This document shows, one piece after another, positions 1,851 to 29,032 of a DNA stretch of 64,000 bases; within the stretch, counting starts at the first letter, position 1; each line of letters begins with the position of its first letter. Source of the stretch: a bacterium. GTDB lineage: Bacteria > Zixibacteria > MSB-5A5 > WJJR01. The stretch is taken from positions 56,559 to 120,558 of the forward strand of contig JAKAKI010000040.1 in NCBI GenBank assembly GCA_021813505.1. Direction: 5' to 3'. Under the pieces are notes generated by a model. It worked only from the letters and a program-made list of their open reading frames with translations. It made no database searches and was not told the origin of the DNA. The translations under genes were made by a program, and so were the position numbers.

Positions 1851-3185
1851 ATGGCGCTTCGTTCCAGCATCGAGCGCTTCTTCGAATTCGGTGATCGCCA
1901 GGCCAGTTGGCGCGGCGAGATCATCGGCGGTTTTACAACGTTCCTGACAATGGCGTATATCGTCTTTGTCCAGCCGGCGGTGCTGGCGCAGGCGGGCATG
2001 GACTTTGGCGCCGTCATGGCCGCGACATGCCTATCGGCGGCGATTGCCACGCTGATCATGGCGTTGGCTGCAAACTATCCGATCGCGCTCGCGTCGGGCA
2101 TGGGGGAGAATTTCTTCTTCGTCTACGGTGTGGTCCTGGCCACCGGGATGCCATGGCCCGATGCCATGGGCGCCGTCTTTTTCGCGGGTGTTCTTTTCGT
2201 CATCCTTTCATTGGTCAGAGCGCGCGAAACGATTCTGAGCGGGATACCGGATTCTCTGAAGACAGCCTCAGCGGCCGGAATTGGACTTCTGATTGCGTTC
2301 TTCGGGCTGACCAATGCCGGATTAATCGTGAAAGGATCGGGCGCGCTGGTGGCGCTGGGGAAACTCACTCAGCCGCCCGTGCTCCTGGCGCTCGGGGGAT
2401 TGCTGGTCACTGTGATCATGTCAGTCCGCGGAATTCGTGGTGCGATCTTTTGGGGCATCCTGCTGTCCACATTGGCTGCGGCCGTCACCGACATGATTCA
2501 TATCGAAGGGGTCGTGGCGGCACCGCCCTCGCTGGCGCCGACATTTGGGAAACTGACGTGGACACCGGTTCTGTCTGCTGATTTCTTCGCGGCGGTTCTT
2601 GTCTTTCTGTTCATGGAGGTACTCGACACGGTCGGCACTCTCTCTGCCGTTGGGAAGCAGGGAGGCTTCTTTGTCGGCAACAAGCTGCCGCGTGCCAACC
2701 GCGCCTTTCTGGCCGATTCGCTTGGGATTGTGAGCGGCGCGATTCTGGGGACAACGACCGTGACAGCATACGCGGAATCATCGGCGGGAATCGCCGCCGG
2801 CGCGCGGACCGGCCTCTCCAACATGATCGTGATCCTTTGTTTTGTCCTGGCCTTGTTCTTTCACCCGCTGATCAGGGCGATTGGCGGCGGCATCGCGGCG
2901 CCGGACGGCAGTATCTTGAACCCGATCACGGCTCCCGCACTGATCATGGTTGGCGTCATGATGACCCGGCTGGTGGGACGGATTCCCTGGGACGATCTGA
3001 CCGAGGCGATACCGGCATTTCTGGTTATCATTGGCATACCGTTGACCTTTTCGATTTCCGACGGTCTGGCGCTGGGGTTTACGTTCTTCCCAATTGCCAA
3101 GATTGCGGCCGGACGCCATCGCGAGGTGCATCCGGTGATGTATGTGCTGGCCGCTGCCTCGATGGCGCGGTATGTGTTTCTGTAG
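1851..3185 (+). CDS. NCS2-family nucleobase permease (AzgA/PbuG-like guanine/hypoxanthine permease)
   Basis: 444 aa, ~12 TM segments. N-terminus 'FFEFGDRQASWRGEIIGGFTTFLTMAYIVFV' is typical of AzgA-like purine permeases. Confidence 0.8.
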   Translation: MALRSSIERFFEFGDRQASWRGEIIGGFTTFLTMAYIVFVQPAVLAQAGMDFGAVMAATCLSAAIATLIMALAANYPIALASGMGENFFFVYGVVLATGMPWPDAMGAVFFAGVLFVILSLVRARETILSGIPDSLKTASAAGIGLLIAFFGLTNAGLIVKGSGALVALGKLTQPPVLLALGGLLVTVIMSVRGIRGAIFWGILLSTLAAAVTDMIHIEGVVAAPPSLAPTFGKLTWTPVLSADFFAAVLVFLFMEVLDTVGTLSAVGKQGGFFVGNKLPRANRAFLADSLGIVSGAILGTTTVTAYAESSAGIAAGARTGLSNMIVILCFVLALFFHPLIRAIGGGIAAPDGSILNPITAPALIMVGVMMTRLVGRIPWDDLTEAIPAFLVIIGIPLTFSISDGLALGFTFFPIAKIAAGRHREVHPVMYVLAAASMARYVFL

Positions 3186-3227
3186 TCTTTCTTGAATTAC
3201 GTTTGACCACACCGCGGCCTGTTCCTG

Positions 3228-5558
3228 ATGATCGACGAGTGGCATGTAGCTGGACGCAAATCCGGATTGCCGGATAACCAGCAGCGTATTGCTGTCCGGG
3301 GTAAACGGCACCCGGCCCTGCTCCTGGCAGTGCTCGTTGCGCTCGGTGTTTGCCTTGCTGATCATGTTACGGCAGGCCTGACTCTCTGGCTTTGTACTTC
3401 CCTTGTCGCTCTGGCTGGAGTCGTTGCCTTACTGTTGACCCGACGTTGGCGAGGCTTGCTTGTTCTCGCCGGTGTCATGCTTGGCATTGCGCTGGGGGCG
3501 TGGCGCATGGCCGTCGAACTCCACGGACGACCTTCATTGCCGTTAGTCGACCTCATCGAGACACGCGAGCTGGTTGAAGTGTACGGGCGCCTGACCGGTA
3601 TCCCTCGGCAAAGGCTGAGTGGGTGGAGCGCACCCATTGAAGTAATGACGGTGCGCACCGATGCCGGGATTGTGCCCATCAAGTCCGCCGCGCTTCTCAG
3701 CATGCACAAATCACTTTCGGAGTTTCGCCACGGAGACCAGGTTCATTTCACCGGACGGTTCGAGGCACCGTTTGTCCGTCGCAATCCCGGAGGGTTCGAC
3801 TACGCCGCTCATCTGTTTCGACAGGGCATTGATGCCGTCGTCCGGCCGGTTGATTCTCTCGTTGATCGATACGGACTGAGCTCCACACCATCGCTGATGA
3901 ATATCGTCGAGCCGGTTCGCGCCTGGCTTCGCAATGTGTTCGGTGTGCACATGCCAAAAACAGCGCGCGCCCTGATCCTCGGCTTTCTCCTGGGCGACAC
4001 GGATCAGTTGTCTCCGGGCATTGTGGCGGCGTTCCGGGATTCCGGCACGCTTCATTTGCTGGCGGTTTCCGGGGCGAATGTCTGGCTTCTGGTTGGACTG
4101 GTGGCATGGCCGATGCGATTGCTGCGCATCCCGCGCTGGCCGCGATCGTTGATCATCCTGTCGGTCGTGACAGCCTTCTGTGTTTTGACTCGTAACGAAC
4201 CATCGGTGGTGCGCGCCTCGCTCATGGTGGGATTCTTCATTATTGGCCGCCTGATCTACCGGCCCATAACCTTGCTGAACGCCGTCGGCGCTTCGGCGCT
4301 CGTAATACTCATTGCCTCGCCATCCCAATTATTCCGTCCCGGGTTTCAACTGTCCTATGCGGCAGTCATCGGGATCGCGGTGGTCGCGCGGCAGATAACG
4401 CCATGGACGCAGTCATTGAAATCCCGATGGCTTCGGTCCGGCGTCCTGATCGTTTCTTCCTCGGTTGCGGCCACATTGGCAACCGCTCCCATTGTGGCCT
4501 GGCACTTCGGCAGCGTTTCCTTGGTATCGCTATTCGCGAATCTCGCGATGATCCCACTGGCGGCGGCCAGCCTGTACCTCTGCCTGGCGTTGGCGTTCTT
4601 GTCGGTGCTTTCGGTAGCGGCAGCCGGTTGGATCGCGTACCCGGCAGCCCGATTGCTTGATCTTTCTGCTTACCTGGCCACAACGTTTTCGAAGTTGCCA
4701 GGCGCCCATATTCCCTGGCCCAATCCCTCACCCATCTGGATCATCCACCTTTACGGTGCCGGAATTCTGGCGCTGAACTGGAGGCATCGTTACCGCTGGG
4801 TTCGTCCGGTAGCGTGGTATTCCGTAGGACTGACACTCCTAGTCTCGGCGAGTAGGACACTTCACGAAGACCCGCCGTCAATCACGCTGGCGTACCTGGA
4901 CACCGGCAACACGCGTGTCGCGGCTTGCCTTCATCCTAATGGGAATCTGACCTGGCTGGCCGACGACCCCGGCATTGACGACCAACTGGAGCAATGGGTG
5001 ACTCTGCCATTTGTCCGAACGTTATCGGTCCCTGTGCGGCACGCGGAAACTCATTCATGGCGGCGAATGGATTCTGTGGTCGGCCCCACTGTCAGATCAG
5101 CGCCCGCGCAAGGGCGGTTTCCGGCGCCGGGTTGGCGCAGATATGTCTCCGACCTCGACTCCGCCACAGATTCCCGCAGAGTCTGGTGCGATCGCTTCAC
5201 CTGGCAGGGTGACACGGTCATGTGCCTGCGGGACTATCCCACGTCGCCGCCTGGCGCGGCGTGGATCGACTCCACACTCGGCTCCGGGTGGACGATCGTG
5301 TTGCCGGCAAGAATCCCGGACCGGCTGGTCCGGCGGATCCTTGATCGTCATGCCCCCCGTCGGGTCGCGTTCTTCGGCCATGCCGGGGTTTGGCGCGACC
5401 CGGATCAGGTTCTGGAGTTGTGGCGCATGCGCTATCCAGTCATTGAGTTCTATTCCACCGCCGTTCATGGCTGTATGCAAATCCGCTTAGGCCGGGCGGG
5501 CGCCCCGATTCTGCCCACGATGGCGGAATCTCGCTGGGTCCCCTCTCCGGCGGGTTAA
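3228..5558 (+). CDS. comEC: DNA internalization competence protein ComEC/Rec2
   Basis: 776 aa. N-terminal DUF4131-like membrane region. Competence-domain motif 'LSPGIVAAFRDSGTLHLLAVSGANVWLLVG'. C-terminal metallo-beta-lactamase-like region lacking an obvious HxHxDH motif. Confidence 0.75.
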   Translation: MIDEWHVAGRKSGLPDNQQRIAVRGKRHPALLLAVLVALGVCLADHVTAGLTLWLCTSLVALAGVVALLLTRRWRGLLVLAGVMLGIALGAWRMAVELHGRPSLPLVDLIETRELVEVYGRLTGIPRQRLSGWSAPIEVMTVRTDAGIVPIKSAALLSMHKSLSEFRHGDQVHFTGRFEAPFVRRNPGGFDYAAHLFRQGIDAVVRPVDSLVDRYGLSSTPSLMNIVEPVRAWLRNVFGVHMPKTARALILGFLLGDTDQLSPGIVAAFRDSGTLHLLAVSGANVWLLVGLVAWPMRLLRIPRWPRSLIILSVVTAFCVLTRNEPSVVRASLMVGFFIIGRLIYRPITLLNAVGASALVILIASPSQLFRPGFQLSYAAVIGIAVVARQITPWTQSLKSRWLRSGVLIVSSSVAATLATAPIVAWHFGSVSLVSLFANLAMIPLAAASLYLCLALAFLSVLSVAAAGWIAYPAARLLDLSAYLATTFSKLPGAHIPWPNPSPIWIIHLYGAGILALNWRHRYRWVRPVAWYSVGLTLLVSASRTLHEDPPSITLAYLDTGNTRVAACLHPNGNLTWLADDPGIDDQLEQWVTLPFVRTLSVPVRHAETHSWRRMDSVVGPTVRSAPAQGRFPAPGWRRYVSDLDSATDSRRVWCDRFTWQGDTVMCLRDYPTSPPGAAWIDSTLGSGWTIVLPARIPDRLVRRILDRHAPRRVAFFGHAGVWRDPDQVLELWRMRYPVIEFYSTAVHGCMQIRLGRAGAPILPTMAESRWVPSPAG

Positions 5559-5623
5559 GCCCGATCCCTTTGCCCCCGATAACGATACATGGTGGCACAC
5601 CATGCCACCATCAGGGGTTGAAC

Positions 5624-6796
5624 ATGGGATTTACCGGCAATCTGAAAACTCTCTCGTTCGGAGACATTCTCCAGCTCATATCCACGGGGAAGAAGACTGG
5701 AGTTCTCCAGATTCTGCGGTCGAATTTCGCGAAGAAGATTTACTTCCGCGGCGGGAATATTATCGCCGCCGCGTCGCTGCCTTCGACGATCGAAGAGCGG
5801 CTGGGGCAGGTGCTGGCGCGCAAGGGACTCTTGACGGCGGAAGATCTGGACAAGGCGCTGAAGAGACACAAATCCTCCGGCAAACGGCTTGGCCAGGTGC
5901 TCATCGAAAACGGGATGCTGGACCGATCCGTCGTCCTCGACGCGTTACGCGCTCAGGTGGAAGAGGTCGTTTACAGCGTCTTCTCCTGGTCGGAGGCGGA
6001 ATTCCGGTTCCTGGACGATGAGATGCCGGATCAGGGGCAGATTCTGGTTGATCTCAACACCATGAACGTCATGATGGAAGGCGCCCGGCGATTCGATGAA
6101 TACGCCGAGGTCGCCCACGATCTTCCATCCGGTGAAACTGTCCTGCGCCTGTGCCCGTCGCCGCATCTGAATCAGCCGAGCATCGTCCTCACCGCCGACG
6201 ACGTGGAGATTCTGGCGGCGGTCAATGGCGAACGAAATCTGCTGGAGATTCTCGCCACGGCGCCAAACGGTGAATACAGTGCCTCGAAATCACTCCACAA
6301 ACTCGTGCAATCGAAACTGGTCGAGGCCTGTCCCGATGCTGCGGAGCGCGACAAGCGGCGCGGAGAGGAAGAGCAAGTCTACGATTTGATCTACCGCCTG
6401 TATTCGCACGCGCTTCAGGCGCTGCGCAAGTCTCTGGTCGAATACCTCGGCATGCTGGGTGAACGGTTGTTCGCGGCGGTGCCGGAGGGCTGGGATTCGG
6501 AGACCGCCGGTCTCCTGAGTGTTTTGACCGGCGGGAGCGACGGCGCGGAGGAAGCATTTCGCAAGGAGACTTCCCGCATTCCCGAGACGGTGCGTCTGCA
6601 TCGGGTTCTGGCGCTGGCGGGATCATTGTTGTCCGACAAAGTGCGGGTGATGACCGATCGAGTGGGACCCAACACCACCGGACACACAATCAATGGAATA
6701 CACAAGGACCTGACCTTCCTGCTGGCGCAGAAGCGCCAGCTGGCCGACAAGTATGATGTCGGCAGGGAGTTCCGTCAGGCATTGCGAGGAGCGTGA
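5624..6796 (+). CDS. DUF4388-type (PATAN-like) domain protein
   Basis: N-terminal 'GNLKTLSFGDILQLISTGKKTGVLQI...IYFRGGNIIAA' is the DUF4388 signature. Start taken at internal 'MGFTGNL' (5624). C-terminal 250 aa have no recognisable family. Confidence 0.5.
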   Translation: MGFTGNLKTLSFGDILQLISTGKKTGVLQILRSNFAKKIYFRGGNIIAAASLPSTIEERLGQVLARKGLLTAEDLDKALKRHKSSGKRLGQVLIENGMLDRSVVLDALRAQVEEVVYSVFSWSEAEFRFLDDEMPDQGQILVDLNTMNVMMEGARRFDEYAEVAHDLPSGETVLRLCPSPHLNQPSIVLTADDVEILAAVNGERNLLEILATAPNGEYSASKSLHKLVQSKLVEACPDAAERDKRRGEEEQVYDLIYRLYSHALQALRKSLVEYLGMLGERLFAAVPEGWDSETAGLLSVLTGGSDGAEEAFRKETSRIPETVRLHRVLALAGSLLSDKVRVMTDRVGPNTTGHTINGIHKDLTFLLAQKRQLADKYDVGREFRQALRGA

Positions 6797-6800
6797 GACG

Positions 6801-7193
6801 ATGATCGCGAGCTTCATTGTATCGATATCGCATGTCCTCCGCGCCGGCGCGGGGACGCTAATCCAGCAGTCGTCGGGTGCGCAAAGCGGCCAGTCCTCCG
6901 TTTCCGGGTTTTCCATCGGATCGCTGATTCTGTGCATACTAATGGTGCTGGTGCTGGCGGCGTGCATCATGAGTGCTTTCAAGATCTATGTTGCCGTCCG
7001 GGGTGGGAAGATTGCCCAGGGCTGGTTTCTGTTTGTCGTTGGATTTGGGCTGCTTGGCCTGGCTCAGGTGATACTGCTCGCGTCTCAGATGACGATCCTG
7101 CCGGTGTCGACGATGCTGGCGGATGCCATGCGCGCCGTGGCCCTGATTGTGATTTTGATCGGCGCCGGCCGTCTGAGAAGACTCCTGACATAG
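6801..7193 (+). CDS. Small integral membrane protein (hypothetical)
   Basis: ATG 6801 lies 5 nt after the previous stop, with an 'aggag' 9 nt upstream. ~3 TM helices. No family recognised. Confidence 0.4.
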   Translation: MIASFIVSISHVLRAGAGTLIQQSSGAQSGQSSVSGFSIGSLILCILMVLVLAACIMSAFKIYVAVRGGKIAQGWFLFVVGFGLLGLAQVILLASQMTILPVSTMLADAMRAVALIVILIGAGRLRRLLT

Positions 7194-7305
7194 AGTGCTA
7201 TTCGGTGCGCACTTACGTGCAGCCGCGGCCGTCACGGTATCGCGGGGTAATGGGGTTTTGGCAGGCGCAGCGCAAATGGTTGGTAAAGTTCCCCCCATGG
7301 GGCGT

Positions 7306-7326
7306 CGATATCAACAATTGTGATAT
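7306..7326. promoter_or_regulatory. AT-rich inverted repeat ATATCA-N7-TGATAT (candidate operator) ~67 nt upstream of the TPR gene
   Basis: 'GATATCAACAATTGTGATATG' with a palindromic CAATTG core, in an otherwise GC-rich 200-bp intergenic region. Confidence 0.2.
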
Positions 7327-7392
7327 GGGGATAGCCCTTGTCGCGCAGGCGGACGCGGGGCTGTCGCAGTGATTTGATTTCCAAGGGCGCAG

Positions 7393-8283
7393 ATGATCAA
7401 CGTCGCGGAATTAGACGAGCGCATCGAACGTTGCCTGGCCATTCTGGCTGATAATCCGCATTCCCAGGTTTTTGCGGCACTGGCCGAGGCATACCGGCGC
7501 CGTGGAGACTTTGGCCGGGCATTCTCGGTGTGCAAGAGCGGGCTGAAGCATCACCCGGATTATAGTCCGGCCTATGTTGTTCTGGCCAAGCTCTATTTGC
7601 ACCAGAAGATGCTGCCGGATGCATTGACTTCTCTGCAGCGTGCGGTTGAGCTCGATGGCACGACTCGCGTCACCGATGTGCTCGAAGCGGAGATTCAACT
7701 CGCGCTGGGAGACATCAAGGCGACGCAGGTTGTGATCGATCGCTTGCGCATGACGGATCCGGGGAATGTCTCGTTGCCGGAACTGGTGGAACAACTGAAG
7801 CTGCTGCGGTCCGGCCCAATTGTCCCTCCGGCGAATTCTTCGCCCCCGGATGATTGGTCCCAATCATCGCCGCGCGCAGCCTCAGTGTCACGACCCGAGC
7901 CGGAATGCACGAATTGGCCGGAGTGGGCGGTCGCCACCGGCAATCTTCCGGGAGTCGAGTTTGCGTTCGTTGCCGGAGCAAATGGCCGCGTTAGCGCACA
8001 ATCCCCCGAGTCCGAGGCGACTCCCTCCAAAGCCGAAATCATTCTGGATTCGTTGCGGGAGATCGAAGGCCGCTGGCAGGCCGACGTTTGGGGAACGGTC
8101 GGTGAACTTCGCATCGAGAGCACACACGGAGACGTGTGGATCGGACGGCTCAAGGACGTGATCGTCGGATTCGTAGGGTCAGAGCAATTGAAGTACGGTG
8201 CGGCGCGCCAGCGCTGTCTTGATTTGGCGGCGCGGGTCCTGGATGCGCAGATCGCGACAGGCAGTACTGAGGGGCGTGTGTGA
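7393..8283 (+). CDS. TPR-repeat protein
   Basis: N-terminal TPR-like helical repeats ('AEAYRRRGDFGRAFSVCKSGLKHHPDYSPAYVVLAKLYLHQKM...'). Pro/Ser-rich C-terminal half. Confidence 0.6.
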   Translation: MINVAELDERIERCLAILADNPHSQVFAALAEAYRRRGDFGRAFSVCKSGLKHHPDYSPAYVVLAKLYLHQKMLPDALTSLQRAVELDGTTRVTDVLEAEIQLALGDIKATQVVIDRLRMTDPGNVSLPELVEQLKLLRSGPIVPPANSSPPDDWSQSSPRAASVSRPEPECTNWPEWAVATGNLPGVEFAFVAGANGRVSAQSPESEATPSKAEIILDSLREIEGRWQADVWGTVGELRIESTHGDVWIGRLKDVIVGFVGSEQLKYGAARQRCLDLAARVLDAQIATGSTEGRV

Positions 8284-8310
8284 GCGTCTTGACTTGGAAG
8301 GGAATGTACA

Positions 8311-9270
8311 ATGGGCGCATATGACAGGGACACAACGGCCGGAACTGTGAGCACGGTCGTCCGACAGACAATTCTTCTCACGGGCGCCCTGTCCGTGTTA
8401 CCGCTGTTGCCGTATCCCAACACTTTTGGGATGGGGATGCTGGGGGCCGGCCCCTGGCTGGGAGCCGTGGAAACTCTCCTGTATCTGGGGATTCTCTCCC
8501 TTCTGGCCCGCTGGCTCACCGCGCCGCAACTGATTGTCGGCGCCGTGCTGACGTTTGCCTATCGCGCAGCGCTTGGCGCCGCATCCGGATCATTGCTTGC
8601 GGCCAGCAACAATGTGCCCTGGGGGGAGTCGGTCAGTCTCACTCTGTGGTCTTATCCCATCGCGGTCTTTCCGCATATTCTGGCAGCACCACTGGTCGTG
8701 CGTTCCATTCTGAAAGCGTTTTGGGATGAAGAACGCCCGTATTCGCGCCGTCGTGCCATGCCGGTGACGGCGTCGACTGTGTCCCGCCGCGCCGACGGAC
8801 TGGCGCGTACTGAGCCCACTCCCCGTATTGTGCAGCATGCCGCGACGGCACGCGCTGTCACTCATAACATGCCGGCCCTTGACAACGCCATGAGCTACAT
8901 CGGCGAGTACGACGGTGTGCGGATGTGCTGGCTGGTGGACCATGAAGGATTGCCACTGGCTTCCTGGCAGCGGCAGGAGTACACGGGCAGTGTCGAGTTT
9001 TGGGCGCCGATTTCGGTTGAGATTGTGGAATTCAACCGGCGCTGTTTGTCGGCGGGTGGCGATGTCCGGCCACTGCGCGTCGAGGTACGGACCGATGCGG
9101 GACGAATCATTCTGGAAACCGCCGGGGAGTTCTGGCTGGGTGTATTGACCGATCGCGAAACGGATGAGCTCATCGGTCTGCGTCTTTCCCAATCACGCGA
9201 AATGATCTTAAAACATCTGCAGGAGCGGTGTGCGCAGTACTCGGGATTGCAGGAGGCTCGGTATGTATGA
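8311..9270 (+). CDS. Membrane-anchored Roadblock/LC7-domain protein
   Basis: RBS 'ggaaggga' before ATG 8311. N-terminal ~140 aa with 4 predicted TM helices. C-terminal ~110 aa ('SYIGEYDGVRMCWLVDHEGLPLASW...VEIVEFNRRCL...') resemble a Roadblock/LC7 fold. Stop overlaps the next gene start. Confidence 0.5.
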   Translation: MGAYDRDTTAGTVSTVVRQTILLTGALSVLPLLPYPNTFGMGMLGAGPWLGAVETLLYLGILSLLARWLTAPQLIVGAVLTFAYRAALGAASGSLLAASNNVPWGESVSLTLWSYPIAVFPHILAAPLVVRSILKAFWDEERPYSRRRAMPVTASTVSRRADGLARTEPTPRIVQHAATARAVTHNMPALDNAMSYIGEYDGVRMCWLVDHEGLPLASWQRQEYTGSVEFWAPISVEIVEFNRRCLSAGGDVRPLRVEVRTDAGRIILETAGEFWLGVLTDRETDELIGLRLSQSREMILKHLQERCAQYSGLQEARYV

Positions 9271-9601
9271 AGTATTAACCCAGTTGAACAAGACAAATGG
9301 CGTTACCGGCAGCATGGTGGTCGGCAACGATGGCATCGTGATCGCCGCAGACCTCAACAGCCAGATCGAGGACGACACGGTCGGTGCAATGGCTTCGTCC
9401 ATTGTGGCGACTGTCCGGCGGTCGATGACCAGCCTCGGAAATGGTGAGTTCTCCCAGATTACGGTCGAGGCGGACAAGCGCAAGATGTTCCTCGCCGATG
9501 CGGGCGTCGGAACCCTGGTGGTGACGACGGAGCCGCGCGTGAATATCGGGCTGGTGAGGCTCGAGATTCGCAACGCGATCAACGAATTGCGCAACGCCTG
9601 A
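9263..9601 (+). CDS. Roadblock/LC7-domain protein (MglB paralogue, MglC-like)
   Basis: RBS 'aggagg' 9251-9256, then ATG 9263. 112 aa: 'MYEVLTQLNKTNGVTGSMVVGNDGIVIAADL...TVEADKRKMFLADAGVGTLVVTT' is a Roadblock/LC7 profile. Confidence 0.65.
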   Translation: MYEVLTQLNKTNGVTGSMVVGNDGIVIAADLNSQIEDDTVGAMASSIVATVRRSMTSLGNGEFSQITVEADKRKMFLADAGVGTLVVTTEPRVNIGLVRLEIRNAINELRNA

Positions 9602-9648
9602 GAGGACCGCCGGCAGCAGCGGCTGCAGGCCGCGGAGAAAAGCAGCGA

Positions 9649-10605
9649 ATGGTAACCATCAATTACGCGTTTCGGGAGATTAGTTGTAAGATCGTCTACT
9701 ATGGCCCGGGTCTGTCCGGCAAGACGACCAATCTCCAATACGTGCATGATCGTGTCCCGTCCAAGTCCCGGGGAGATCTGATCTCCCTGGCCACCGAGGC
9801 GGACCGGACACTCTTTTTCGATTTCCTGCCGATTCACGTCGGTGACATCGCCGGGTTCGCGACCAAATTCCAGTTGTACACCGTGCCGGGCCAGGTCTTC
9901 TACAACGCCACGCGGAAGCTGGTGCTTCGCGGCGTCGATGGGATCGTGTTTGTCGCCGATTCGCAGACGGCGAAGATGGACGAGAACATCGAGTCACTGA
10001 CCAATATGTTCGAAAATCTTCGCGAGAACGGTATTGATCCGGCGGATATCCCGATCGTGCTGCAATACAACAAGCGTGATTTGCCGGACATCGTTTCCAT
10101 CGAAGAACTCCAGAAACAGCTGAATCCCTCCGGGTGGCCGTACTCCGAGGCATCAGCGGTGAGTGGCATCGGCGTCTTCGACACCCTCAAGCGAATCACC
10201 AAAATGGTGCTGGAACAGACCAAACGGCGGACGGCCGTCACGCCTGACGGTTTGCCGCAGATGGGTGAGGGAGTGCAGCCGTCTCCTGTCCACGAGCCGC
10301 ACGCCGCTTCCAGCATTTTGGAATCGAGTGGAAAGATCGCCCGGCCCCAAGCGCCTGCCGTTGCGGAAAGCTGGCCGTCGCCCAGCGATGCGCCGGTGGC
10401 AGTCGCTGCCGAAGAACCTGCGGTTACCGTTGCCGCGCCGGCCTCCAGAGAATCCGTTTCATCGGAGCGCCTGGGCGGGGCACCTGAATCGAATTCGTCA
10501 TCCTCGCGTGGCCGGATTGTCATGGCTGCGCAGCCTAGTTTGCGTATCCGAACCCGGCAGCGCTCGTTCTGGGGGCGCGTGCTGGATTGGTTGTCCGGTC
10601 GTTAG
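9649..10605 (+). CDS. mglA: Ras-like small GTPase MglA with ~125-aa low-complexity C-terminal extension
   Basis: N-terminal 195 aa are near-colinear with Myxococcus MglA ('INYAFREISCKIVYYGPGLSGKTTNLQYV...TLFFDFLP...YTVPGQVFYNATRKL...VFVADSQ...QYNKRDLP'). They are followed by a Pro/Ala/Ser-rich tail ending 'RQRSFWGRVLDWLSGR'. Confidence 0.85.
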   Translation: MVTINYAFREISCKIVYYGPGLSGKTTNLQYVHDRVPSKSRGDLISLATEADRTLFFDFLPIHVGDIAGFATKFQLYTVPGQVFYNATRKLVLRGVDGIVFVADSQTAKMDENIESLTNMFENLRENGIDPADIPIVLQYNKRDLPDIVSIEELQKQLNPSGWPYSEASAVSGIGVFDTLKRITKMVLEQTKRRTAVTPDGLPQMGEGVQPSPVHEPHAASSILESSGKIARPQAPAVAESWPSPSDAPVAVAAEEPAVTVAAPASRESVSSERLGGAPESNSSSSRGRIVMAAQPSLRIRTRQRSFWGRVLDWLSGR

Positions 10606-10615
10606 GAGGTGACCG

Positions 10616-11095
10616 ATGGCGTCGCATTCATTTGTACTATTCGAAGAGCAGATCAATCAGATCAACGCAGCCTTGCTGCGGATGATCAAGAAGGCAGAGG
10701 CGAAGTGTGCTCTCCTGGTGGACAAGGATGGCCATCTGCTCACCCGACAGGGGTTCACTCAAACCCTGGATACAACTGCGCTGGCGGCGCTGCTGGCTGG
10801 GAGTTTTGCCTCTACCAAGGAGATCGCCCGTCTGGTGGGCGAGCCGGAGTTCTCGGTGCTATTCCACCAGGGGAAAAAGGACCACATCCACATTTCGCTG
10901 GTGGGTGAGCGGTGCATTCTCGCCGTCGTGTTCGATGATCGCACCACCATTGGAATGGTGCGCCTATACGCCAAGGAAACCGGCGACCGACTCAAGGAGA
11001 TACTGACAGTCACAGGGAATCGTGAGGAGCCCGCGTTAGATCCCGATTTCACCCGGTCCGCCGGGTCGAAGATCGACGCGGTCTTCAAAGAGTAG
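10616..11095 (+). CDS. mglB: MglB (Roadblock/LC7 GTPase-activating protein of MglA)
   Basis: 159 aa with strong similarity to M. xanthus MglB ('LLVDKDGHLLTRQGFTQTLDTTALAALLAGSFAS...EFSVLFHQGKKDHIHISLVGERCILAVVFDDRTTIGMVRLYAKE'). Confidence 0.85.
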   Translation: MASHSFVLFEEQINQINAALLRMIKKAEAKCALLVDKDGHLLTRQGFTQTLDTTALAALLAGSFASTKEIARLVGEPEFSVLFHQGKKDHIHISLVGERCILAVVFDDRTTIGMVRLYAKETGDRLKEILTVTGNREEPALDPDFTRSAGSKIDAVFKE

Positions 11096-11165
11096 AGGTT
11101 CCTCCAGCCTTTTTGCCGGCATGTGACCATTCACCGCGGTTCGCCCGCGTGTCAGACGAGAGACC

Positions 11166-12857
11166 ATGTCCCAAGAACTCGGCCATATGCTGGTCAAGGC
11201 TGGGAAGATCACGCCTGAGCAACTGGCTCAGGCGCTCGAACGGCAGAAATCCAGCAGTGAGAAATTCGCCGACATCCTCGTCCGCATGGGTGCGGTGGCC
11301 GATGAGGACGAGCTTACTCATTTCATCGGCCGCCAGCTCAACATCGGGGCTCTGCGCTTGTCCGATGTTGAACTCAACCCCGAGATCGTCAAGGTCATTC
11401 CGCTCGATATTGCCCGGCGTTTCAATGTCATCGCCATTTCCAAACTGAACAAGACGCTGGTGGTTGCCATCAGTGATCCGCACAACATCTATGTGCTGGA
11501 TGCACTCAAGTTCATCACGGGATGCACGATCCAGCCCGTCATTTCACCGGAACGGGCGATCGGACGCGCGATTGACCAATACTACCGCGACAGCGGCGGT
11601 ATCGGTGATCTGCTCAAGGGACTCGAGGATGATGGCGGGCTTCAGGTCATCGAAACGCAGGACGCGCTGGACGAATCCGATCTGCGTTCACAGGTGCAGG
11701 ATAAGCCCTTGGTCAAGCTCGTCGATGGCATCATCATGGAAGCCATCCGGCGGGGTGCCTCGGACATTCACATCGAGTCGTACGAAAAGCGCGTGCGCGT
11801 CCGTTACCGCATCGACGGCGTGCTGCATGAAACCGAGCCACTGCCGTTCAAATATCGGGCCGCCATCGTTTCGCGCGTCAAGATCATGGCCGAACTCGAC
11901 ATTTCGGAACGCCGTCTGCCGCAGGACGGACGCATCAAGGTCAAAGTCGGCGCGCGGGCGGTTGACCTTCGCGTATCGGTGCTGCCCACGATTTTCGGCG
12001 AAAAGGTCGTGATGCGAATTCTCGACCCGCAGTCCCTGATGGCTGACCTGACACAACTGGGATTCCCGGAGCTCGCGCTCAAGAACTTCCAGCATGCCAT
12101 TTCCCTTCCCTACGGGATGATCCTCGTCACGGGACCCACAGGCTCCGGCAAGACGACCACACTGTACTCGGCGCTGAAGACTCTGAACGATCCTGAGGTC
12201 AATATCCTGACCGCCGAGGACCCGGTGGAGTTCAATTTTGACGGAATCAATCAGGTGCTGGTCCGGAGCGACATCGGCCTGACCTTCGCGGCATCGCTGC
12301 GCTCCTTCTTGCGACAAGACCCCGACATCGTGATGGTCGGCGAGATTCGAGATGGAGAAACCGCGGAGATCGCGATCCGCGCGGCACTGACGGGGCACCT
12401 TGTGTTTTCCACGCTTCACACGAATGATGCGCCCTCCTCGATCAACCGTCTGATCGATATGGGCATTCCGCCATACCTGGTCGCCTCGGCCACGAAGCTG
12501 ATCATGGCCCAGCGAATGACCCGAAAGATCTGCCCGCATTGCCGCAAGGAAATCGAGCTTACGCCCGAGCATCTGGCGGCTCTGGGGATCGCCCCGGAAG
12601 AGGCAAAAGAGCTTCATGTCTTTGAAGGAGCGGGTTGCGCGGAGTGCAATCACACCGGACTGTCCGGGCGAACGGGTATTTTCGAGGTGATGCCGATTTC
12701 GCCAATTGTTGAGCGGATGGTCCTCGACTCCGCATCGGTGGATGAACTTCGGCAGCAGGCTGTCAAGGAAGGGATGCTCACCCTGCGTATGGCGGCGGTG
12801 GGGAAGATGAAGCTGGGACTCATTCCGATTGAGCAGGTTCTGGCAGAGTCCGCCTGA
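11166..12857 (+). CDS. pilB: Type IV pilus assembly ATPase PilB (GspE family)
   Basis: N-terminal T2SS_E_N-like domain. Walker A 'GPTGSGKTTTLY'. Tetracysteine motif 'CPHCRKE...CAEC'. Confidence 0.9.
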   Translation: MSQELGHMLVKAGKITPEQLAQALERQKSSSEKFADILVRMGAVADEDELTHFIGRQLNIGALRLSDVELNPEIVKVIPLDIARRFNVIAISKLNKTLVVAISDPHNIYVLDALKFITGCTIQPVISPERAIGRAIDQYYRDSGGIGDLLKGLEDDGGLQVIETQDALDESDLRSQVQDKPLVKLVDGIIMEAIRRGASDIHIESYEKRVRVRYRIDGVLHETEPLPFKYRAAIVSRVKIMAELDISERRLPQDGRIKVKVGARAVDLRVSVLPTIFGEKVVMRILDPQSLMADLTQLGFPELALKNFQHAISLPYGMILVTGPTGSGKTTTLYSALKTLNDPEVNILTAEDPVEFNFDGINQVLVRSDIGLTFAASLRSFLRQDPDIVMVGEIRDGETAEIAIRAALTGHLVFSTLHTNDAPSSINRLIDMGIPPYLVASATKLIMAQRMTRKICPHCRKEIELTPEHLAALGIAPEEAKELHVFEGAGCAECNHTGLSGRTGIFEVMPISPIVERMVLDSASVDELRQQAVKEGMLTLRMAAVGKMKLGLIPIEQVLAESA

Positions 12858-12960
12858 TCCATTTCTATCAAGTGGCCCCTGCCGGAAGCCGATAAATCCT
12901 AAAAGGGCGTATTGGGCAAGCGAAAGTCAACGAATCAGCTCGGGGAAAGACACTGATCAT

Positions 12961-14061
12961 ATGGTGACGTTAAGAGAATTGCTGGAATTGGCGCATCAGC
13001 GCAAAGCATCCGATCTGCACCTGACAGTGGGATCTCCCCCACAGTTGCGCATCGATGGCCGGCTGGTTCGTACCGAAATGGAGCCGCTGACGGCCGAGCA
13101 GACCAAGAAGCTGGCGTACAGCATCATGAACGAAAAGCAGCGGAAGAAATTCGAGGAATCCTGGGAGCTGGACCTCTCCTTTGGAATCGAGAATCTCAGC
13201 CGTTTTCGCTGCAACGTATTCGTCCAGCGCGGCAATGTGGCCGTGTCGATCCGGCAGATTCCGTTCAAAATCAGCACCTTCGAAGAGCTGGGCCTGCCCC
13301 GCGTGGTCAGCGAACTGGCCAACCTGCCGCGGGGACTCGTGCTCGTCACCGGACCGACCGGATCGGGCAAATCGACGACGCTGGCGGCGCTGATCGACAA
13401 GATCAACCGCGAACGCTATTGCCACATCATCACCGTCGAGGACCCGATCGAATATCTGCACCGGCACCACTGTTCGATCGTCAACCAGCGCGAGGTCTAC
13501 TCGGATACGACGTCGTTTTCTTCGGCGTTGAAGTATGCGCTGCGCGAAGACCCCGACGTCGTGCTGGTGGGCGAAATGCGCGATCTGGAGACGGTCGAAT
13601 CCGCCCTGCGGATTTCCGAAACGGGCCACCTGGCGTTTGCCACGTTGCACACGAATTCCTGCGCGGAGTCCATCAACCGCATCATTGACGTGTTTCCGGT
13701 CAATCAGCAGGAACAGATTCGCGTGACGCTGTCATTCGTGCTTCAGGCGGTCGTCTCGCAACAGCTGATTCCGCGCGTCGGCGGCGGCCGTGTGCTGGCC
13801 CTTGAGGTCATGATTTGCACGCCGGCGATTAGGGCGGTCATTCGTGACGACAAGATTCATCAGATATACAGTTTGATCCAGGCGGGGCAGAAGTTCGGCA
13901 TGCGCACGATGAATCAGTCGCTGGCGGAATTGTACCTGGGGCGGAAGCTGACGATGGGCGACGCGGTTGCCCGGTCGAGCAATCCGCAGGAAATCAATGA
14001 TATGATCCAGCGCAGCCAGGTGCTGGCCGGGACTCGCGACCACGCAACAGTAGGAGGTTGA
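12961..14061 (+). CDS. pilT: Twitching-motility retraction ATPase PilT
   Basis: Start at internal ATG 12961 (the ORF has a spurious N-extension). 'GPTGSGKSTTLAALID', 'AFATLHTNSCAESINRI'. Typical PilT length (366 aa). Confidence 0.9.
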   Translation: MVTLRELLELAHQRKASDLHLTVGSPPQLRIDGRLVRTEMEPLTAEQTKKLAYSIMNEKQRKKFEESWELDLSFGIENLSRFRCNVFVQRGNVAVSIRQIPFKISTFEELGLPRVVSELANLPRGLVLVTGPTGSGKSTTLAALIDKINRERYCHIITVEDPIEYLHRHHCSIVNQREVYSDTTSFSSALKYALREDPDVVLVGEMRDLETVESALRISETGHLAFATLHTNSCAESINRIIDVFPVNQQEQIRVTLSFVLQAVVSQQLIPRVGGGRVLALEVMICTPAIRAVIRDDKIHQIYSLIQAGQKFGMRTMNQSLAELYLGRKLTMGDAVARSSNPQEINDMIQRSQVLAGTRDHATVGG

Positions 14062-14062
14062 T

Positions 14063-15262
14063 GTGCCTCTGTTCGAATACAAAGGGAAGACACTTGCCGG
14101 CACCGCGGTGGCGGGCGAACTCCGCGCCAAGAGCCGGGCGGATCTCGAACGCCTGTTGCGCCGCAAGAAGATCATGATCTCGAACGTCAGCAAGAAGCCG
14201 TCGCAGCTCAAATTCAAGCTGGGAACCGGCATCAAGAAGATCGAGATCTCGCGTTTCACGCGGCAGTTCGCCACAATGATCGGGGCAGGTCTGCCGATGG
14301 TGCAGTGCCTGGACATCTTGTCCAAGCAGATGGAGTCCGCCGAACTGCGGCGCATTGTCGGGCAGGTTAAAGAGTCCGTCTCGAGCGGCTCGACCTTGGC
14401 CGAGGGACTCTCCAAGCACAAGAAGATTTTCGACGACCTGTACGTCAATATGGTCGAGGCCGGTGAGATTGGCGGTGCCCTGGACACGATCTTAGTCAGG
14501 CTGGCCAATTATCGTGAAAAGGCCGATGCCCTCATCCGCAAAGTGCGCGGGGCTCTCGTCTATCCGACCGTCATCGTGGTGGTGGCACTGGCCGTCACGT
14601 TCATTATGCTAACGTGGATTGTGCCGGTGTTCGCGAAGATGTTCTCGGGCCTCGGTGCGGAATTGCCGGCACCGACGCAGATCGTGCTCGGTATCTCCGA
14701 ATTCCTCCGTCAAAACGTCGGGAAGATCCTCCTGTCCTTCATTGCACTGGGTGTCCTCTTCCGGATGATGTTGCGAACCGACAAAGGACGGCTGAACTTT
14801 GACCGGTTTATGCTGAAGGCTCCATTGATCGGTACGCTGGTACGCAAGAGCGCGATCTCCCGCTTTACCCGCACGCTGGGAACGTTGATTTCATCGGGCG
14901 TTTCGATTCTTGACGCCCTGGAGATTACGGCCAAGACGGCGGGCAATCGTGTGATCCATGATGCCATCCGCCGATCAGTGCTGGCGATTGCCGAAGGTGA
15001 TACGATTACCGGACCTCTGGTCCAGACCGGCGTATTTCCGCCGATGGTCACGCAGATGATCTCGGTCGGCGAAAAGACCGGCGGGCTGGACGATATGCTT
15101 TCCAAAATTGCGGACTTCTATGACGAAGAGGTCGACGCTGCCGTCAGTGCGCTGACATCAATCATTGAGCCGGTCATCATCGTGTTCATGGGCGTGGTGA
15201 TTGGAGGCATTCTGATCGCCATGTATCTGCCGATGTTCGACATCATCGGGAAGATCAAGTAA
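14063..15262 (+). CDS. pilC: Type IV pilus inner-membrane platform protein PilC (GspF family)
   Basis: GTG start 2 nt after the pilT stop, with 'aggagg' RBS at 14053-58. Two GspF repeats. 399 aa. Confidence 0.9.
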   Translation: MPLFEYKGKTLAGTAVAGELRAKSRADLERLLRRKKIMISNVSKKPSQLKFKLGTGIKKIEISRFTRQFATMIGAGLPMVQCLDILSKQMESAELRRIVGQVKESVSSGSTLAEGLSKHKKIFDDLYVNMVEAGEIGGALDTILVRLANYREKADALIRKVRGALVYPTVIVVVALAVTFIMLTWIVPVFAKMFSGLGAELPAPTQIVLGISEFLRQNVGKILLSFIALGVLFRMMLRTDKGRLNFDRFMLKAPLIGTLVRKSAISRFTRTLGTLISSGVSILDALEITAKTAGNRVIHDAIRRSVLAIAEGDTITGPLVQTGVFPPMVTQMISVGEKTGGLDDMLSKIADFYDEEVDAAVSALTSIIEPVIIVFMGVVIGGILIAMYLPMFDIIGKIK

Positions 15263-15346
15263 TCAGTTGACGCAAACGTGACCGGCGCCCCCAGGGGCGC
15301 CGGTCATTCCCCAGGTTGCCTGAGAGCCGGGCCCGGAAATCCTCCC

Positions 15347-17119
15347 ATGTTTGTCTACAGCCGGCGCCATTCCGCAGTTGCTCTGCGGCCGTCCTGGGTG
15401 GTTAGCACGCGCCTGGTGGCCTATGCCGTGACGACAGCGCTGGCGTGGCCGCTGCTTCGAACCACGCCGTATCTCACCAGTTCGCTGATCATCTACACCA
15501 CGGCCACGATCACGACCGTCCTGGCGGTGCTCATGGGACGGCGGCACGCGGCGTCTCCGCTTGCCTCGGTCCTGAGGGCCGCACAGATTGCCTGCGAACT
15601 GGTTGTCGTCTCGCTGATCGTCCTTCACACCGGCGGGACACGGTCGCCGTCGTTCTACCTGTATCTGACCACCATCATCTCCGCGGCGGTGTCGTATCGC
15701 CTGATCGGAACGCTCTTTGTGGCATCGGCGGCGACGGCGGCCTACTGCGTCGTGGTATGGATCGACTCCGGCCACGGGCTCTCGATCTTTCAGCCCAATC
15801 AGTGGCTTGGGACTGTCCGGCAGCTGTCGGATGAGGACTTCTTCACGGCATTCGTACGACTGTGCATTTTCTACCTCTGCGCGTTTGTCGGAGGGTACTT
15901 GGCGGAGCGGCTGTCTTCGAACGATGAAGTGCTGGCACACACGACGGAGGCGCTTAAAGAGGCCAAGCTCGAAACCGGTGATATTCTGAAGCACCTGAAT
16001 TCCGGGATCTTTACGGTCGATCTGGAAGGCCGCATCGTCTATTTCAACCGGGCGGCGGAGGAAATTCTCAGACTTCCGGGACGGCGCGTGCGCGGACGCC
16101 ACTTCCATGAGGCCTTTGAGGGACGATACCCTGAGCTGGTCAGCCGGCTCGAGACGGTGCTGCACTCCCAGAAGATGGATACGCGCACCGAGCTGACGAT
16201 TGATCACGCCGATGGCACGAAGACGCCGATCGGTCTATCGACGTCGGTGCTTGCCGATGCCGAGGGGAAGGCCCGGGGCGTGATCGGAATCTTCCAGGAT
16301 TTGACCGAGCCCAAGATGCTGGAAGAGAAGTTGCGGGCAAAAGACCGCCTGGCAGCGGTGGGCGAACTCTCGGCGGCGATCGCGCATGAAATCCGCAATC
16401 CTCTGGCGGCCATCTCAGGATCCGTTGAGGTTCTCCGCGACGAATTGAAACTCGAAGACGACAACCGGCGGCTTTTGAACTTGATTGTCAAGGAATCCGA
16501 TCGGCTCAACAAGATCCTGACGGACTTCCTGATGTACGCGCGCATTCGTCCGACCGTCGCCGGGCGGGTCAGCATTGCGCCGGTGATCGATGACGTGCTC
16601 GAGATCACGCGGCGGCATTTCCAGGGGCGGTCGGTCCAGTTGCGAACACGGCAGGCCGACCAATCATTGGCGGTGCAGGCCGATGCCGACCATCTGAAAC
16701 AGATCTTGATCAACCTGGTCTTCAACGCCGTCGAGGCGGGCGAGAGTCCCGACAGCGCCGTGACCGTGATTGTCGAAATCCCGCACGTGTTGCCCTTTGA
16801 CCCAAGGTTTGATGCCGACCGGAACAACCCGGCCCAATGGGTTTCCATCGCGGTCCACGACAATGGCGGCGGCATACCCGTTGAGGTCCGCCACCGTCTC
16901 TTCGAACCGTTTGTGTCCTCCAAGCCATCCGGAACCGGTCTGGGACTGGCCATAACCTCCCGGCTCGTCGAGAACATCGGTGGCGCAATCACGGTGGAAA
17001 GCCAGCCCGGACGCGGCACCACGATGGGAGTACTCCTGCCCCGGTGCGCGGCCACTGGCGAGGCTTCGGCATCGGACGAGACTTCCCCGCAGGACCTCGC
17101 GGTCGTGGCTCACAGCTAG
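15347..17119 (+). CDS. pilS: PilS-like sensor histidine kinase (6-TM N-domain, PAS, HisKA, HATPase_c)
   Basis: Start at internal ATG 15347. Six N-terminal TM helices. PAS ('FTVDLEGRIVYFNRAAEEIL'). H-box 'ELSAAIAHEIRNPLAAI'. N/G boxes 'HDNGGGIP...GTGLGLAI'. Adjacent to pilC. Confidence 0.75.
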   Translation: MFVYSRRHSAVALRPSWVVSTRLVAYAVTTALAWPLLRTTPYLTSSLIIYTTATITTVLAVLMGRRHAASPLASVLRAAQIACELVVVSLIVLHTGGTRSPSFYLYLTTIISAAVSYRLIGTLFVASAATAAYCVVVWIDSGHGLSIFQPNQWLGTVRQLSDEDFFTAFVRLCIFYLCAFVGGYLAERLSSNDEVLAHTTEALKEAKLETGDILKHLNSGIFTVDLEGRIVYFNRAAEEILRLPGRRVRGRHFHEAFEGRYPELVSRLETVLHSQKMDTRTELTIDHADGTKTPIGLSTSVLADAEGKARGVIGIFQDLTEPKMLEEKLRAKDRLAAVGELSAAIAHEIRNPLAAISGSVEVLRDELKLEDDNRRLLNLIVKESDRLNKILTDFLMYARIRPTVAGRVSIAPVIDDVLEITRRHFQGRSVQLRTRQADQSLAVQADADHLKQILINLVFNAVEAGESPDSAVTVIVEIPHVLPFDPRFDADRNNPAQWVSIAVHDNGGGIPVEVRHRLFEPFVSSKPSGTGLGLAITSRLVENIGGAITVESQPGRGTTMGVLLPRCAATGEASASDETSPQDLAVVAHS

Positions 17120-17302
17120 CGAGACACGTGGCGAGTGCGACCGTCACGGGAGCGCCCTGCATTCCCCTCGAAGTGATTTGTCTGTGACCGTCATGGTCCT
17201 CTAACTCCATCGTGCACAACAAGGTTTTGCCCGCACGTTCGGGGTTTTCCATTGACTCACCGCTTTGGCTTGCCGTATGATCCTGTGCTCAAGAAGGATC
17301 AG

Positions 17303-18280
17303 ATGGAAAAGACGCTTCAAAAGACCCTCGCCCCGATTGCTGATGGGTTGCGGGATTTTGAGGAGGCGTTTGCCGCAGCGCTCGGCGACCACGCCGGACT
17401 GATCGGGGCCATGGCTGCCCATGTTCTGGCGTCGCCGGGCAAGAGGATTCGCCCGGCAATGTATCTTCTGACCTCTTCGATTGCCCGGACAGGGGAGAGA
17501 CCGACCCCAATTGACGGCGCTGTCGCCATTGAACTGATCCACACGGCCACTTTGCTGCATGACGACGTAAACGACGGTGCCGAGCAACGCCGGGGCCGTC
17601 CCGCAGTCAATCGTCTCTGGGGCAATCTCTCGGCCGTTCTGATGGGAGACCACCTGTTTGCCAAGGCGTTCCGAATCATGGTTCGCCTGGGCGATGCCCG
17701 CATCCTCGATTCCATCTCCCACGCCACAGAACGCGTGGCGGTCGGGGAACTGTTGCAGGTTCAGGAAGTTCGGAATTTCCAGCTTGAGGAATCCGGCTAC
17801 CTCCGGATCATCGGCGACAAAACGGCGTCCCTGTTTGCGGCGGCTTGCGAGTCGGGGTCTCTGCTCAGCGGGACAGATCGCTGGGCCTCACGTTTCCGCC
17901 AGTTTGGCGAGTCGGTCGGGCTTGGATTTCAGATTGCCGACGATCTTTTGGATTATGTGGGCGACCAATCACTGACCGGCAAGCCTGTTGGCAATGACCT
18001 GAGGGAGGGAAAAGTAACACTCCCCTTGATCTTTGCCCTCAAGCATGGGCCGGAGTCGGAACGCCGCCATATCCTGGAGCACATCTCCAACGGGCACGCC
18101 GAAAGCAGTTTTTCGGAGGTTGTCGGCTTTGTCGAACGGTATGGGGGATTTGCCTATGCCCGCGGGCGCGCCGAGGAGTATTGCGCCCGGGCACTCGATA
18201 TCATCAAAGACGCCGGAGACTCGGATCACAAACTGGCGTTGGAGGCAGTCGTTAATCACGTCGTCAGCCGCCAGTCGTGA
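17303..18280 (+). CDS. Polyprenyl diphosphate synthase (IspB/HepT-like trans-isoprenyl diphosphate synthase)
   Basis: First Asp-rich motif 'LLHDDVNDGAEQRRG' and second 'FQIADDLLD'. An alternative upstream ATG at 17252 is in frame. Confidence 0.8.
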   Translation: MEKTLQKTLAPIADGLRDFEEAFAAALGDHAGLIGAMAAHVLASPGKRIRPAMYLLTSSIARTGERPTPIDGAVAIELIHTATLLHDDVNDGAEQRRGRPAVNRLWGNLSAVLMGDHLFAKAFRIMVRLGDARILDSISHATERVAVGELLQVQEVRNFQLEESGYLRIIGDKTASLFAAACESGSLLSGTDRWASRFRQFGESVGLGFQIADDLLDYVGDQSLTGKPVGNDLREGKVTLPLIFALKHGPESERRHILEHISNGHAESSFSEVVGFVERYGGFAYARGRAEEYCARALDIIKDAGDSDHKLALEAVVNHVVSRQS

Positions 18281-18422
18281 CTCAAGGCCAAACCGGCGGA
18301 TGAATTCTTCACTCCCACCGTTGCCGTGTGACTCCAGACGCCAATTTCCTGCCAACGGGATGCCTGCCGGAGTGTAGAAGCATCCGTTGTTCGGTGACAC
18401 GTAAGCTGGGCCGCCAGCAGCT

Positions 18423-29004: not shown

Positions 29005-29032
29005 TTCCTATCGCTTTCCATCGCGACTTAGC

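Follow-up and report, generated by a model that had tools for sequence, protein, structure and literature searches.

Small GTPases of the MglA type and proteins with a PATAN domain are known to act on type IV pili (T4P) in several bacteria. In Myxococcus xanthus, MglA-GTP acts on pili through the tetratricopeptide repeat (TPR) protein SgmX (PMC7519303, PMC7668184), and RomR is found there in a complex with two Roadblock proteins, MglB and MglC (PMC10329633). The MglA of Bdellovibrio binds a TPR protein as well (PMC3983030), mglAB mutants of Thermus have mislocalised pili (PMC12024867), and PATAN domains of Synechocystis bind the N-terminal domains of PilB (PilB1) and of PilC (10.1101/2021.06.11.447907). 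So far, the route from MglA to the pilus motor and the roles of Roadblock paralogues are only partly understood, and this from a single model organism with scattered genes. Here we describe a locus of the Zixibacteria (contig JAKAKI010000040.1; the window analysed comprises 64,000 nucleotides, positions 56,559 to 120,558) in which genes for MglA, MglB, a PATAN protein and additional Roadblock proteins lie in one block with comEC and the genes for the type IVa pilus motor proteins PilB, PilT and PilC. On balance we favour the view that this block encodes a phylum-specific, self-contained small-GTPase control unit together with the PilB/PilT/PilC motor and ComEC, which would serve twitching and/or DNA uptake. 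In the searchable literature, no description of the Zixibacteria arrangement was found.

According to the ORF (open reading frame) listing and profile searches, the block consists of 12 genes, all on the plus strand, from comEC to a pilS-like gene (Table 1). A sequence-only reading of the window had named eleven of these genes, with ComEC directly upstream, and the strand, place and identity that it gave for each are borne out, as are its background statements on Myxococcus and Bdellovibrio (for MglA and TPR of the latter, PMC3983030). It had also described the junctions as short or overlapping. This is true of junctions from -8 to 103 nt (10 nt between mglA and mglB) but not of the 199-nt gap in front of the TPR gene. 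Finally, it had counted two extra Roadblock proteins; both are confirmed, but the count was too low, since the TPR protein ends in a third extra Roadblock domain. Overlooked were this TPR-Roadblock fusion, the module for cyclic di-GMP (c-di-GMP) predicted in the PATAN protein and the tail of MglA, which is predicted to target the membrane.

For comparison, 22 related loci were analysed by tblastn and ORF analysis. The order comEC, PATAN gene, small membrane protein gene, TPR-Roadblock gene, gene for a membrane-anchored Roadblock protein (with transmembrane (TM) helices, hence TM-Roadblock), stand-alone Roadblock gene, mglA, mglB, pilB, pilT, pilC and pilS-like gene is kept in 15 of them, that is, in every Zixibacteria contig of sufficient length, and its recurrence in 15 metagenome-assembled genomes (MAGs) is more than chance. 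These loci cover a GC span of 0.44-0.64, and their PATAN proteins are between 96% and as little as 26% identical to that of the window. The closest public contig is JACRMA010000002 from a groundwater MAG (Candidatus Zixiibacteriota; MglA 94% identical), and at the other end stands a deep low-GC clade (GC 0.44-0.46) with PATAN and TPR proteins only 26-31% identical to those of the window. In this clade, every gap from comEC through pilC is at most 70 nt. The comEC gene is located directly 5' of the PATAN gene in all loci extending that far; loci of the low-GC clade separate the two genes by 2-11 nt, those of the high-GC clade by 53-103 nt. The flanks of the block differ from locus to locus (upstream murJ, SIMPL or permease genes; downstream genes for polyprenyl synthase, ThrE or an ABC transporter); the block moves as a unit. 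The dispersal in related genomes that the sequence-only reading had proposed to look for is not seen, the genes staying linked to pilB-pilT-pilC.

Full-length homologues of the PATAN and TPR-Roadblock proteins were found in Zixibacteria-type sequences only. Three distant PATAN relatives outside the phylum, all on long contigs, have neither mgl nor pil neighbours, and at four mglA loci of Fibrobacterota/Verrucomicrobiota mglB is at most adjoining and no pilB is present within 10 kb. At the loci checked (three PATAN, four mglA), the missing pil linkage speaks against the same module in other phyla. This is in agreement with the variable neighbourhoods of group 1 mglA genes, which occasionally include PATAN genes (PMC4316618).

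The block encodes four Roadblock domains, one fused to TPRs, one anchored by TM helices, one free and one in MglB. Three of the four are additional to MglB, the C-terminal one of the TPR protein included. In an AlphaFold2 model of this protein (mean predicted local distance difference test score (pLDDT) 89.5), TPR helices (aa 4-140) are followed by a disordered linker (aa 141-174) and a Roadblock fold (aa 175-288) of the topology alpha-beta-beta-alpha-beta-beta-beta-alpha. A Foldseek search with the C-terminal domain retrieved LAMTOR2/p14 as the best Roadblock-fold match, along with an Asgard Roadblock protein and M. xanthus MglB (E 5e-5 to 7e-4), and the alignment of the last 125 residues from 16 genomes matched the stand-alone Roadblock family with an hhalign probability of 96% (E 3e-9). 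The TPR-Roadblock family has 92 members, all of ~300 aa, and a precomputed match to PF03259 exists for three homologues. In 53 homologues of 27-92% identity, TPR residues 1-100 (window 7393-7700) are near-invariant and the Roadblock end varies, which would fit a highly constrained partner of the TPR domain, such as MglA or PilB.

The TM-Roadblock protein has ~4 TM helices (aa 15-130), a linker and a Roadblock domain (aa ~190-300). As a single sequence it scores below the cutoff for Robl_LC7 (19.6 bits, cutoff 23). Its family profile, however, matches the Roadblock family (hhalign 94.9%, E 4e-8) and, in the PDB, an Asgard Roadblock protein (7f8f, 1.3e-7) and dynein Roadblock chains. The stand-alone Roadblock protein is highly conserved (48-95% identity) and has its closest solved relatives in Asgard Roadblock proteins (7yh1, 1.5e-12), ahead of MglB (1.6e-4); MglC was not among the PDB matches of its profile. 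Note that the ORF of this protein opens with GTG at 9230, and that the orthologues favour the ATG at 9263. To MglB itself, the TM-Roadblock protein and the TPR-fused domain are only weakly related (hhalign 50.6% and 2.9%, respectively). The sequence-only reading had suggested checking the Roadblock-like ORFs for unrelated folds; the profile and fold searches confirm them as Roadblock and add the fourth domain.

The G domain of MglA (aa 1-195) can be aligned without gaps to M. xanthus MglA (5ymx_A) over residues 3-193 and is also close to T. thermophilus MglA (E 3e-71). The sequence retains R53, T78 and Q82 (ADR53TLFFDF; LYT78VPGQ82), all aligned with their counterparts in 5ymx_A: the G3 motif has Thr in place of Asp (TVPGQ), and the intrinsic Arg finger R53 and the catalytic Gln82 are in place. 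By these sequence features it is a canonical G domain of the group 1 type. MglB (Robl_LC7, 50 bits) matches M. xanthus MglB (6izw_B) over residues 6-159, and this full-length alignment includes its C-terminal region. Its score for the NCBIfam equivalog NF052242 is below the cutoff (91 bits, cutoff 200). The protein is probably the GTPase-activating protein (GAP) of MglA.

The MglA of the window does not have the single-domain form of ~195 aa; an extra tail of ~120 aa extends it to 318 aa. This tail (residues ~196-318, window 10234-10605) consists of ~100 low-complexity residues rich in A, S and P, predicted to be a disordered, flexible linker, followed by a polybasic stretch and an amphipathic helix, RSFWGRVLDWLSGR. 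Tails of 120-450 aa are present in all Zixibacteria MglA orthologues (an example from the deep clade ends with KKKFSLFGWLKRLGRK), and the last ~27 residues have a hydrophobic moment of 0.47-0.76 and a net charge of +5 to +11. In both values they presumably resemble a MinD-type membrane-targeting sequence. The tail suggests that MglA is tethered to the membrane. Literature searches turned up nothing specific on membrane-targeting tails of MglA. The 150 best MglA matches in a representative library of 1.84 billion proteins are all 255-800 aa long, and many of them end with KKKGFFxRLFG-like helices or with a hydrophobic segment resembling a tail anchor. Three classes of ends can be distinguished: a polybasic MinD-like amphipathic helix, the hydrophobic tail-anchor-like segment and a conserved ...LRLVLEIRVE...RAA. 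Judging from these 150 best library matches, long C-terminal tails of MglA look widespread. A Fibrobacterota MAG, for example, encodes in the region 4675-6710 of its locus an MglA of 521 aa with a Q/P/E-rich tail ending with KKGFLDNLFNKS; this gene adjoins mglB, with genes of an Mla transporter on one side and one for a polysaccharide deacetylase on the other. As no pilus block is present there, the tail occurs outside Zixibacteria independently of the block.

In the PATAN protein, the match to PF14332 consists of two stretches, which are parted by an insert (aa 59-111). The insert reads RLGQVLARKGLLTAEDLDKALKRH, KSSGK, RLGQVLIENGMLDRSVVLDALRAQ, i.e., a pair of 24-residue motifs with a spacer of five residues between them, which is the architecture of the c-di-GMP-binding MshEN module (PMC5013675). 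It scores 56.8 bits (cutoff 38) for the c-di-GMP motif family NF053729 of NCBIfam. Motif 2 fits the relaxed MshEN pattern (PMC5013675) and motif 1 misses it solely at the last residue, H. In the AlphaFold2 model (pLDDT 86.5), the insert superposes on the c-di-GMP-bound GSPII-B domain of T. thermophilus PilF with 1.2 A over 52 columns. It is thus plausible that the PATAN protein of the window binds c-di-GMP. Its C-terminal half (residues ~190-390, window 6194-6796) is confidently predicted to form a winged-helix-like unit and, after it, a bundle of helices. A fold search of the whole protein against the PDB gave no global match and none for the C-terminal half, the MshEN-like insert alone being matched. 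Some of the orthologues are annotated by JGI as 'predicted transcriptional regulator'. The small membrane protein encoded next was found in all 15 loci that keep the gene order, with the conserved stretch A-x-R-G-G-[KR]-x-A-x-G-W. It has no Pfam or NCBIfam match, and its ORF opens at 6753, the orthologues favouring a start at 6801.

The interactions, membrane and c-di-GMP binding and output that we infer for the encoded proteins could be combined in the following way. A long flexible linker ending in a polybasic, amphipathic C-terminus would tether MglA to the inner membrane, and MglB would act as the GAP of this GTPase. Since Roadblock domains are known to pair, the three extra ones (those of the four-TM and the stand-alone protein and the one fused to TPRs) would build a membrane-anchored scaffold, which could position MglB or shield MglA from it. 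Such a scaffold would be analogous to RomR/MglC/MglB of Myxococcus and, more loosely, to Ragulator. MglA-GTP, via the very highly conserved TPR domain (as with SgmX and Bd2492), would together with the PATAN protein favour the engagement of PilB with PilC, and c-di-GMP would come in as a further signal through the MshEN module inserted in the PATAN protein. The nucleotide state of MglA, set by MglB and the membrane-anchored Roadblock proteins, would thus be relayed along with c-di-GMP to PilB/PilC by the TPR and PATAN proteins. The fusion of TPRs with a Roadblock domain argues that effector and Roadblock scaffold work in one complex. The output would be the place and timing of pilus extension and retraction, for twitching and/or for DNA uptake that depends on ComEC. 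For each pairwise link in this model there is an experimental precedent elsewhere, and a self-contained switch that serves twitching or DNA uptake would agree with all findings.

Several observations weigh against this proposal or narrow it. Gene linkage alone cannot separate polarity control from plain on/off control. None of pilA, pilMNOPQ and pilR was found in the Pfam-scanned ORFs of the window (to ~46,000). Both MshEN motifs are matched in only five of 50 PATAN orthologues and neither in the low-GC clade; as the motifs are degenerate there, the c-di-GMP input is probably not phylum-wide. Residues 5-54 of PilB (window 11166-11330) match NF053729, which describes an MshE-related c-di-GMP domain (52 bits, cutoff 38), and despite this match the N-terminus of PilB does not fit the published pattern of the 24-residue motifs; whether PilB itself binds c-di-GMP is uncertain. 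Furthermore, the block is possibly transcribed as two or more units, since the gap in front of the TPR gene measures 190-460 nt in the high-GC clade and contains a conserved motif.

This motif, GTCGATATCAAnAAnTGT, is located at 7304-7321 in the gap of the window (7194-7392), where it occurs once in the whole window, and precedes the TPR-Roadblock gene in ten high-GC loci. It may be an internal promoter, an operator or another regulator site. In the low-GC clade the genes abut, with no gap for the motif. A riboswitch (for c-di-GMP) or other RNA element in the 199-nt gap was considered and rejected, as Rfam at gathering score matched just two tRNAs, elsewhere in the window. A promoter and terminator scan of 3000-18500 revealed no intergenic terminators; its site counts were not above those of shuffled controls, so that the scan speaks neither for nor against operon breaks. 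By its gene order and tight spacing, the block appears operon-like.

One may ask whether the block is primarily a competence pilus unit, in which the GTPase, Roadblock, PATAN and TPR proteins switch on or place a transformation pilus beside ComEC and do not set a front-rear axis for motility. The constant position of comEC immediately before the PATAN gene, only 2-11 nt away in the low-GC clade, would be well explained in this way. PilT and a PilS-type kinase are, however, typical of motile T4aP systems, the catalytic residues of MglA are those of the Myxococcus polarity GTPase, and MreB is encoded in the window, which is consistent with a rod-shaped cell having defined poles. We therefore regard a competence unit as a tenable but clearly minor possibility; motility and DNA-uptake outputs are not mutually exclusive.

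A further explanation concerns only the role of the extra Roadblock proteins, which might act directly on MglA as alternative GAPs, co-GAPs or regulators similar to guanine nucleotide exchange factors (GEFs), and not as a scaffold. RomY and MglB of Myxococcus form a bipartite GAP (PMC9481161), the C-terminal helix of MglB is GEF-like, and the MglB fold is common to all four Roadblock domains of the block. However, the stand-alone protein is nearer to Roadblock proteins of the Asgard/dynein type than to MglB, and the hhalign values given above place the other two at a distance from it as well. Direct regulation of this kind seems rather unlikely to us, and we keep the scaffold as the working model. 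That the gene order is merely inherited, with the mgl, Roadblock and PATAN genes regulating gliding, division or envelope processes instead of the pilus, is improbable: mglA neighbourhoods of group 1 do vary in other phyla (PMC4316618), Myxococcus MglA controls gliding too, through MreB (PMC4508894), and the 199-nt gap with its own conserved motif splits the block in two parts, but the order outlasts a divergence down to 26-31% identity and a GC shift of 15 points (0.45 to 0.60), with changed genes on either side of the block, the gaps in the low-GC clade are of a few nucleotides, and PATAN and TPR partners are experimentally tied to PilB/PilC and MglA in other bacteria.

The control unit proposed here is most similar to the polarity module of Myxococcus (MglA, MglB, MglC, RomR/RomX, RomY, SgmX). 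Both have a group 1 MglA with R53, T78 and Q82, a full-length MglB and at least one extra Roadblock paralogue, and in both the connection to the pilus machine probably runs through a TPR protein. The order pilB-pilT-pilC-pilS is presumably also that of the Myxococcus pil cluster. In contrast to Myxococcus, the polarity genes are contiguous with the pil genes, the extra Roadblock domains are three (one TPR-fused and one on a four-TM anchor), MglA bears a predicted membrane-targeting tail, and none of RomR, RomX, RomY and MglC is encoded within the block. To our knowledge, Bdellovibrio lacks MglB. In this organism, a hub of MglA, the TPR protein Bd2492 and RomR controls pili at one pole (PMC3983030). 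The pair of MglA and a TPR protein is common to both systems (the TPR proteins being compared by domain type), whereas the block additionally encodes MglB and three more Roadblock domains.

The PATAN protein shares with the cyanobacterial regulators PixG, PixE and PilG its PATAN domain, into which an alpha-helical element akin to the N1 repeats of PilB is inserted. For these regulators, experiments have established a link to the N-terminal domains of PilB1 and PilC (10.1101/2021.06.11.447907). Unlike them, the PATAN protein of the block has no receiver domain but a segment of winged-helix type and a C-terminal domain made up of helices, its insert scores as a full MshEN module, and its gene is located together with those for MglA and MglB. 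Co-occurrence of PATAN, Roadblock and MglA genes as such has been described (Makarova 2006; Wuichet and Sogaard-Andersen 2015), but in those neighbourhoods it is occasional and the context variable (PMC4316618); across the Zixibacteria it is a fixed array of 12 genes with the pilus motor and comEC. Two eukaryotic systems offer analogies, i.e., Ragulator-Rag, in which several Roadblock domains and a membrane anchor act on a small GTPase, and the hypervariable region (HVR) of Ras, a flexible linker with a polybasic membrane-binding end. We claim no homology beyond the Roadblock fold; the MglA of the block has no Roadblock domain at its C-terminus, and the predicted anchors are a TM domain and an amphipathic helix instead of lipid modifications. 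What sets the locus apart from the known control of T4P by MglA and MglB is that the control genes are constantly linked to those of the motor and to comEC, that Roadblock domains are joined to TPRs and to a TM anchor, and that MglA has a tail.

The compact block probably represents a complete set of parts (GTPase, GAP, three Roadblock partners, TPR adaptor, PATAN/c-di-GMP sensor, motor and ComEC), and thus offers a short, testable list of interactions for reconstitution. The predicted tether of MglA furthermore points to a common and so far overlooked anchoring of bacterial Ras-like GTPases in the membrane. Going beyond the control unit as such, one could imagine, as a speculative extension that we consider possible without thinking it likely, a membrane-resident GTPase system with an HVR-like tethered MglA and a Ragulator-like heteromeric Roadblock platform (one subunit an integral membrane protein, one TPR-fused). 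Such a system would gate PilB versus PilT at individual machines by c-di-GMP and without landmarks of the RomR/RomX type, in Zixibacteria and in many uncultured relatives with long-tailed MglA. If true, this design would be a second, simpler form of GTPase-based spatial control in bacteria and a bacterial parallel to the membrane-anchored GTPase/Roadblock signalling of eukaryotes.

Table 1. Genes and other features of the block (window positions)
Feature	Position	Strand	Evidence and remarks
comEC, DNA-uptake channel	3228..5558	+	Pfam Competence, 189 bits, plus DUF4131; first gene of the block
PATAN (PatA_N/DUF4388) protein	5624..6796	+	PF14332, 114 bits (cutoff 25)
Small membrane protein	6801..7193	+	signal-peptide-like N-terminus and 3 TM helices (hydropathy)
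Conserved 18-nt motif GTCGATATCAAnAAnTGT, candidate internal promoter/operator	7304..7321	+	invariant core in 10 high-GC loci
TPR-Roadblock fusion	7393..8283	+	several Pfam TPR families; C-terminal Roadblock fold
Membrane-anchored Roadblock protein (TM-Roadblock)	8311..9270	+	hydropathy; Robl_LC7 sub-threshold; profile matches
Stand-alone Roadblock/LC7 protein, 112 aa	9263..9601	+	Robl_LC7 (PF03259), 56.9 bits (cutoff 23)
mglA, 318 aa	9649..10605	+	E 3e-76 to M. xanthus MglA
mglB, probable Roadblock GAP of MglA, with C-terminal helix region	10616..11095	+	E 2e-34 to M. xanthus MglB
pilB, pilus extension ATPase, MshEN-like N-terminus	11166..12857	+	TIGR02538, 693 bits (cutoff 675.65)
pilT, pilus retraction ATPase	12961..14061	+	TIGR01420, 492.8 bits (cutoff 319.1)
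pilC, inner-membrane platform protein	14063..15262	+	Pfam T2SSF (two matches), 217 bits
PilS-like sensor histidine kinase	15278..17119	+	6TM_PilS, 28.5 bits (cutoff 27), PAS, HisKA, HATPase_c; last gene of the block

The start of pilT given in Table 1 corresponds to Met45 of the ORF, as deduced from the orthologues and the sequence. For PilC, the best NCBIfam match is the Myxococcus-type PilC, with 494 bits and thus under the equivalog cutoff of 700. No pilR adjoins the gene of the PilS-like kinase; depending on the locus, it is followed by a gene for polyprenyl synthase, one for ThrE or convergent genes of an ABC transporter. The scanned remainder of the window (to ~46,000) contains housekeeping genes only. 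The mreB gene is located at 45231-46259. Among the housekeeping genes there is also a gene for a DUF5131 protein (PF07505, 347 bits; 28925-29782), which adjoins a mandelate racemase-like gene.

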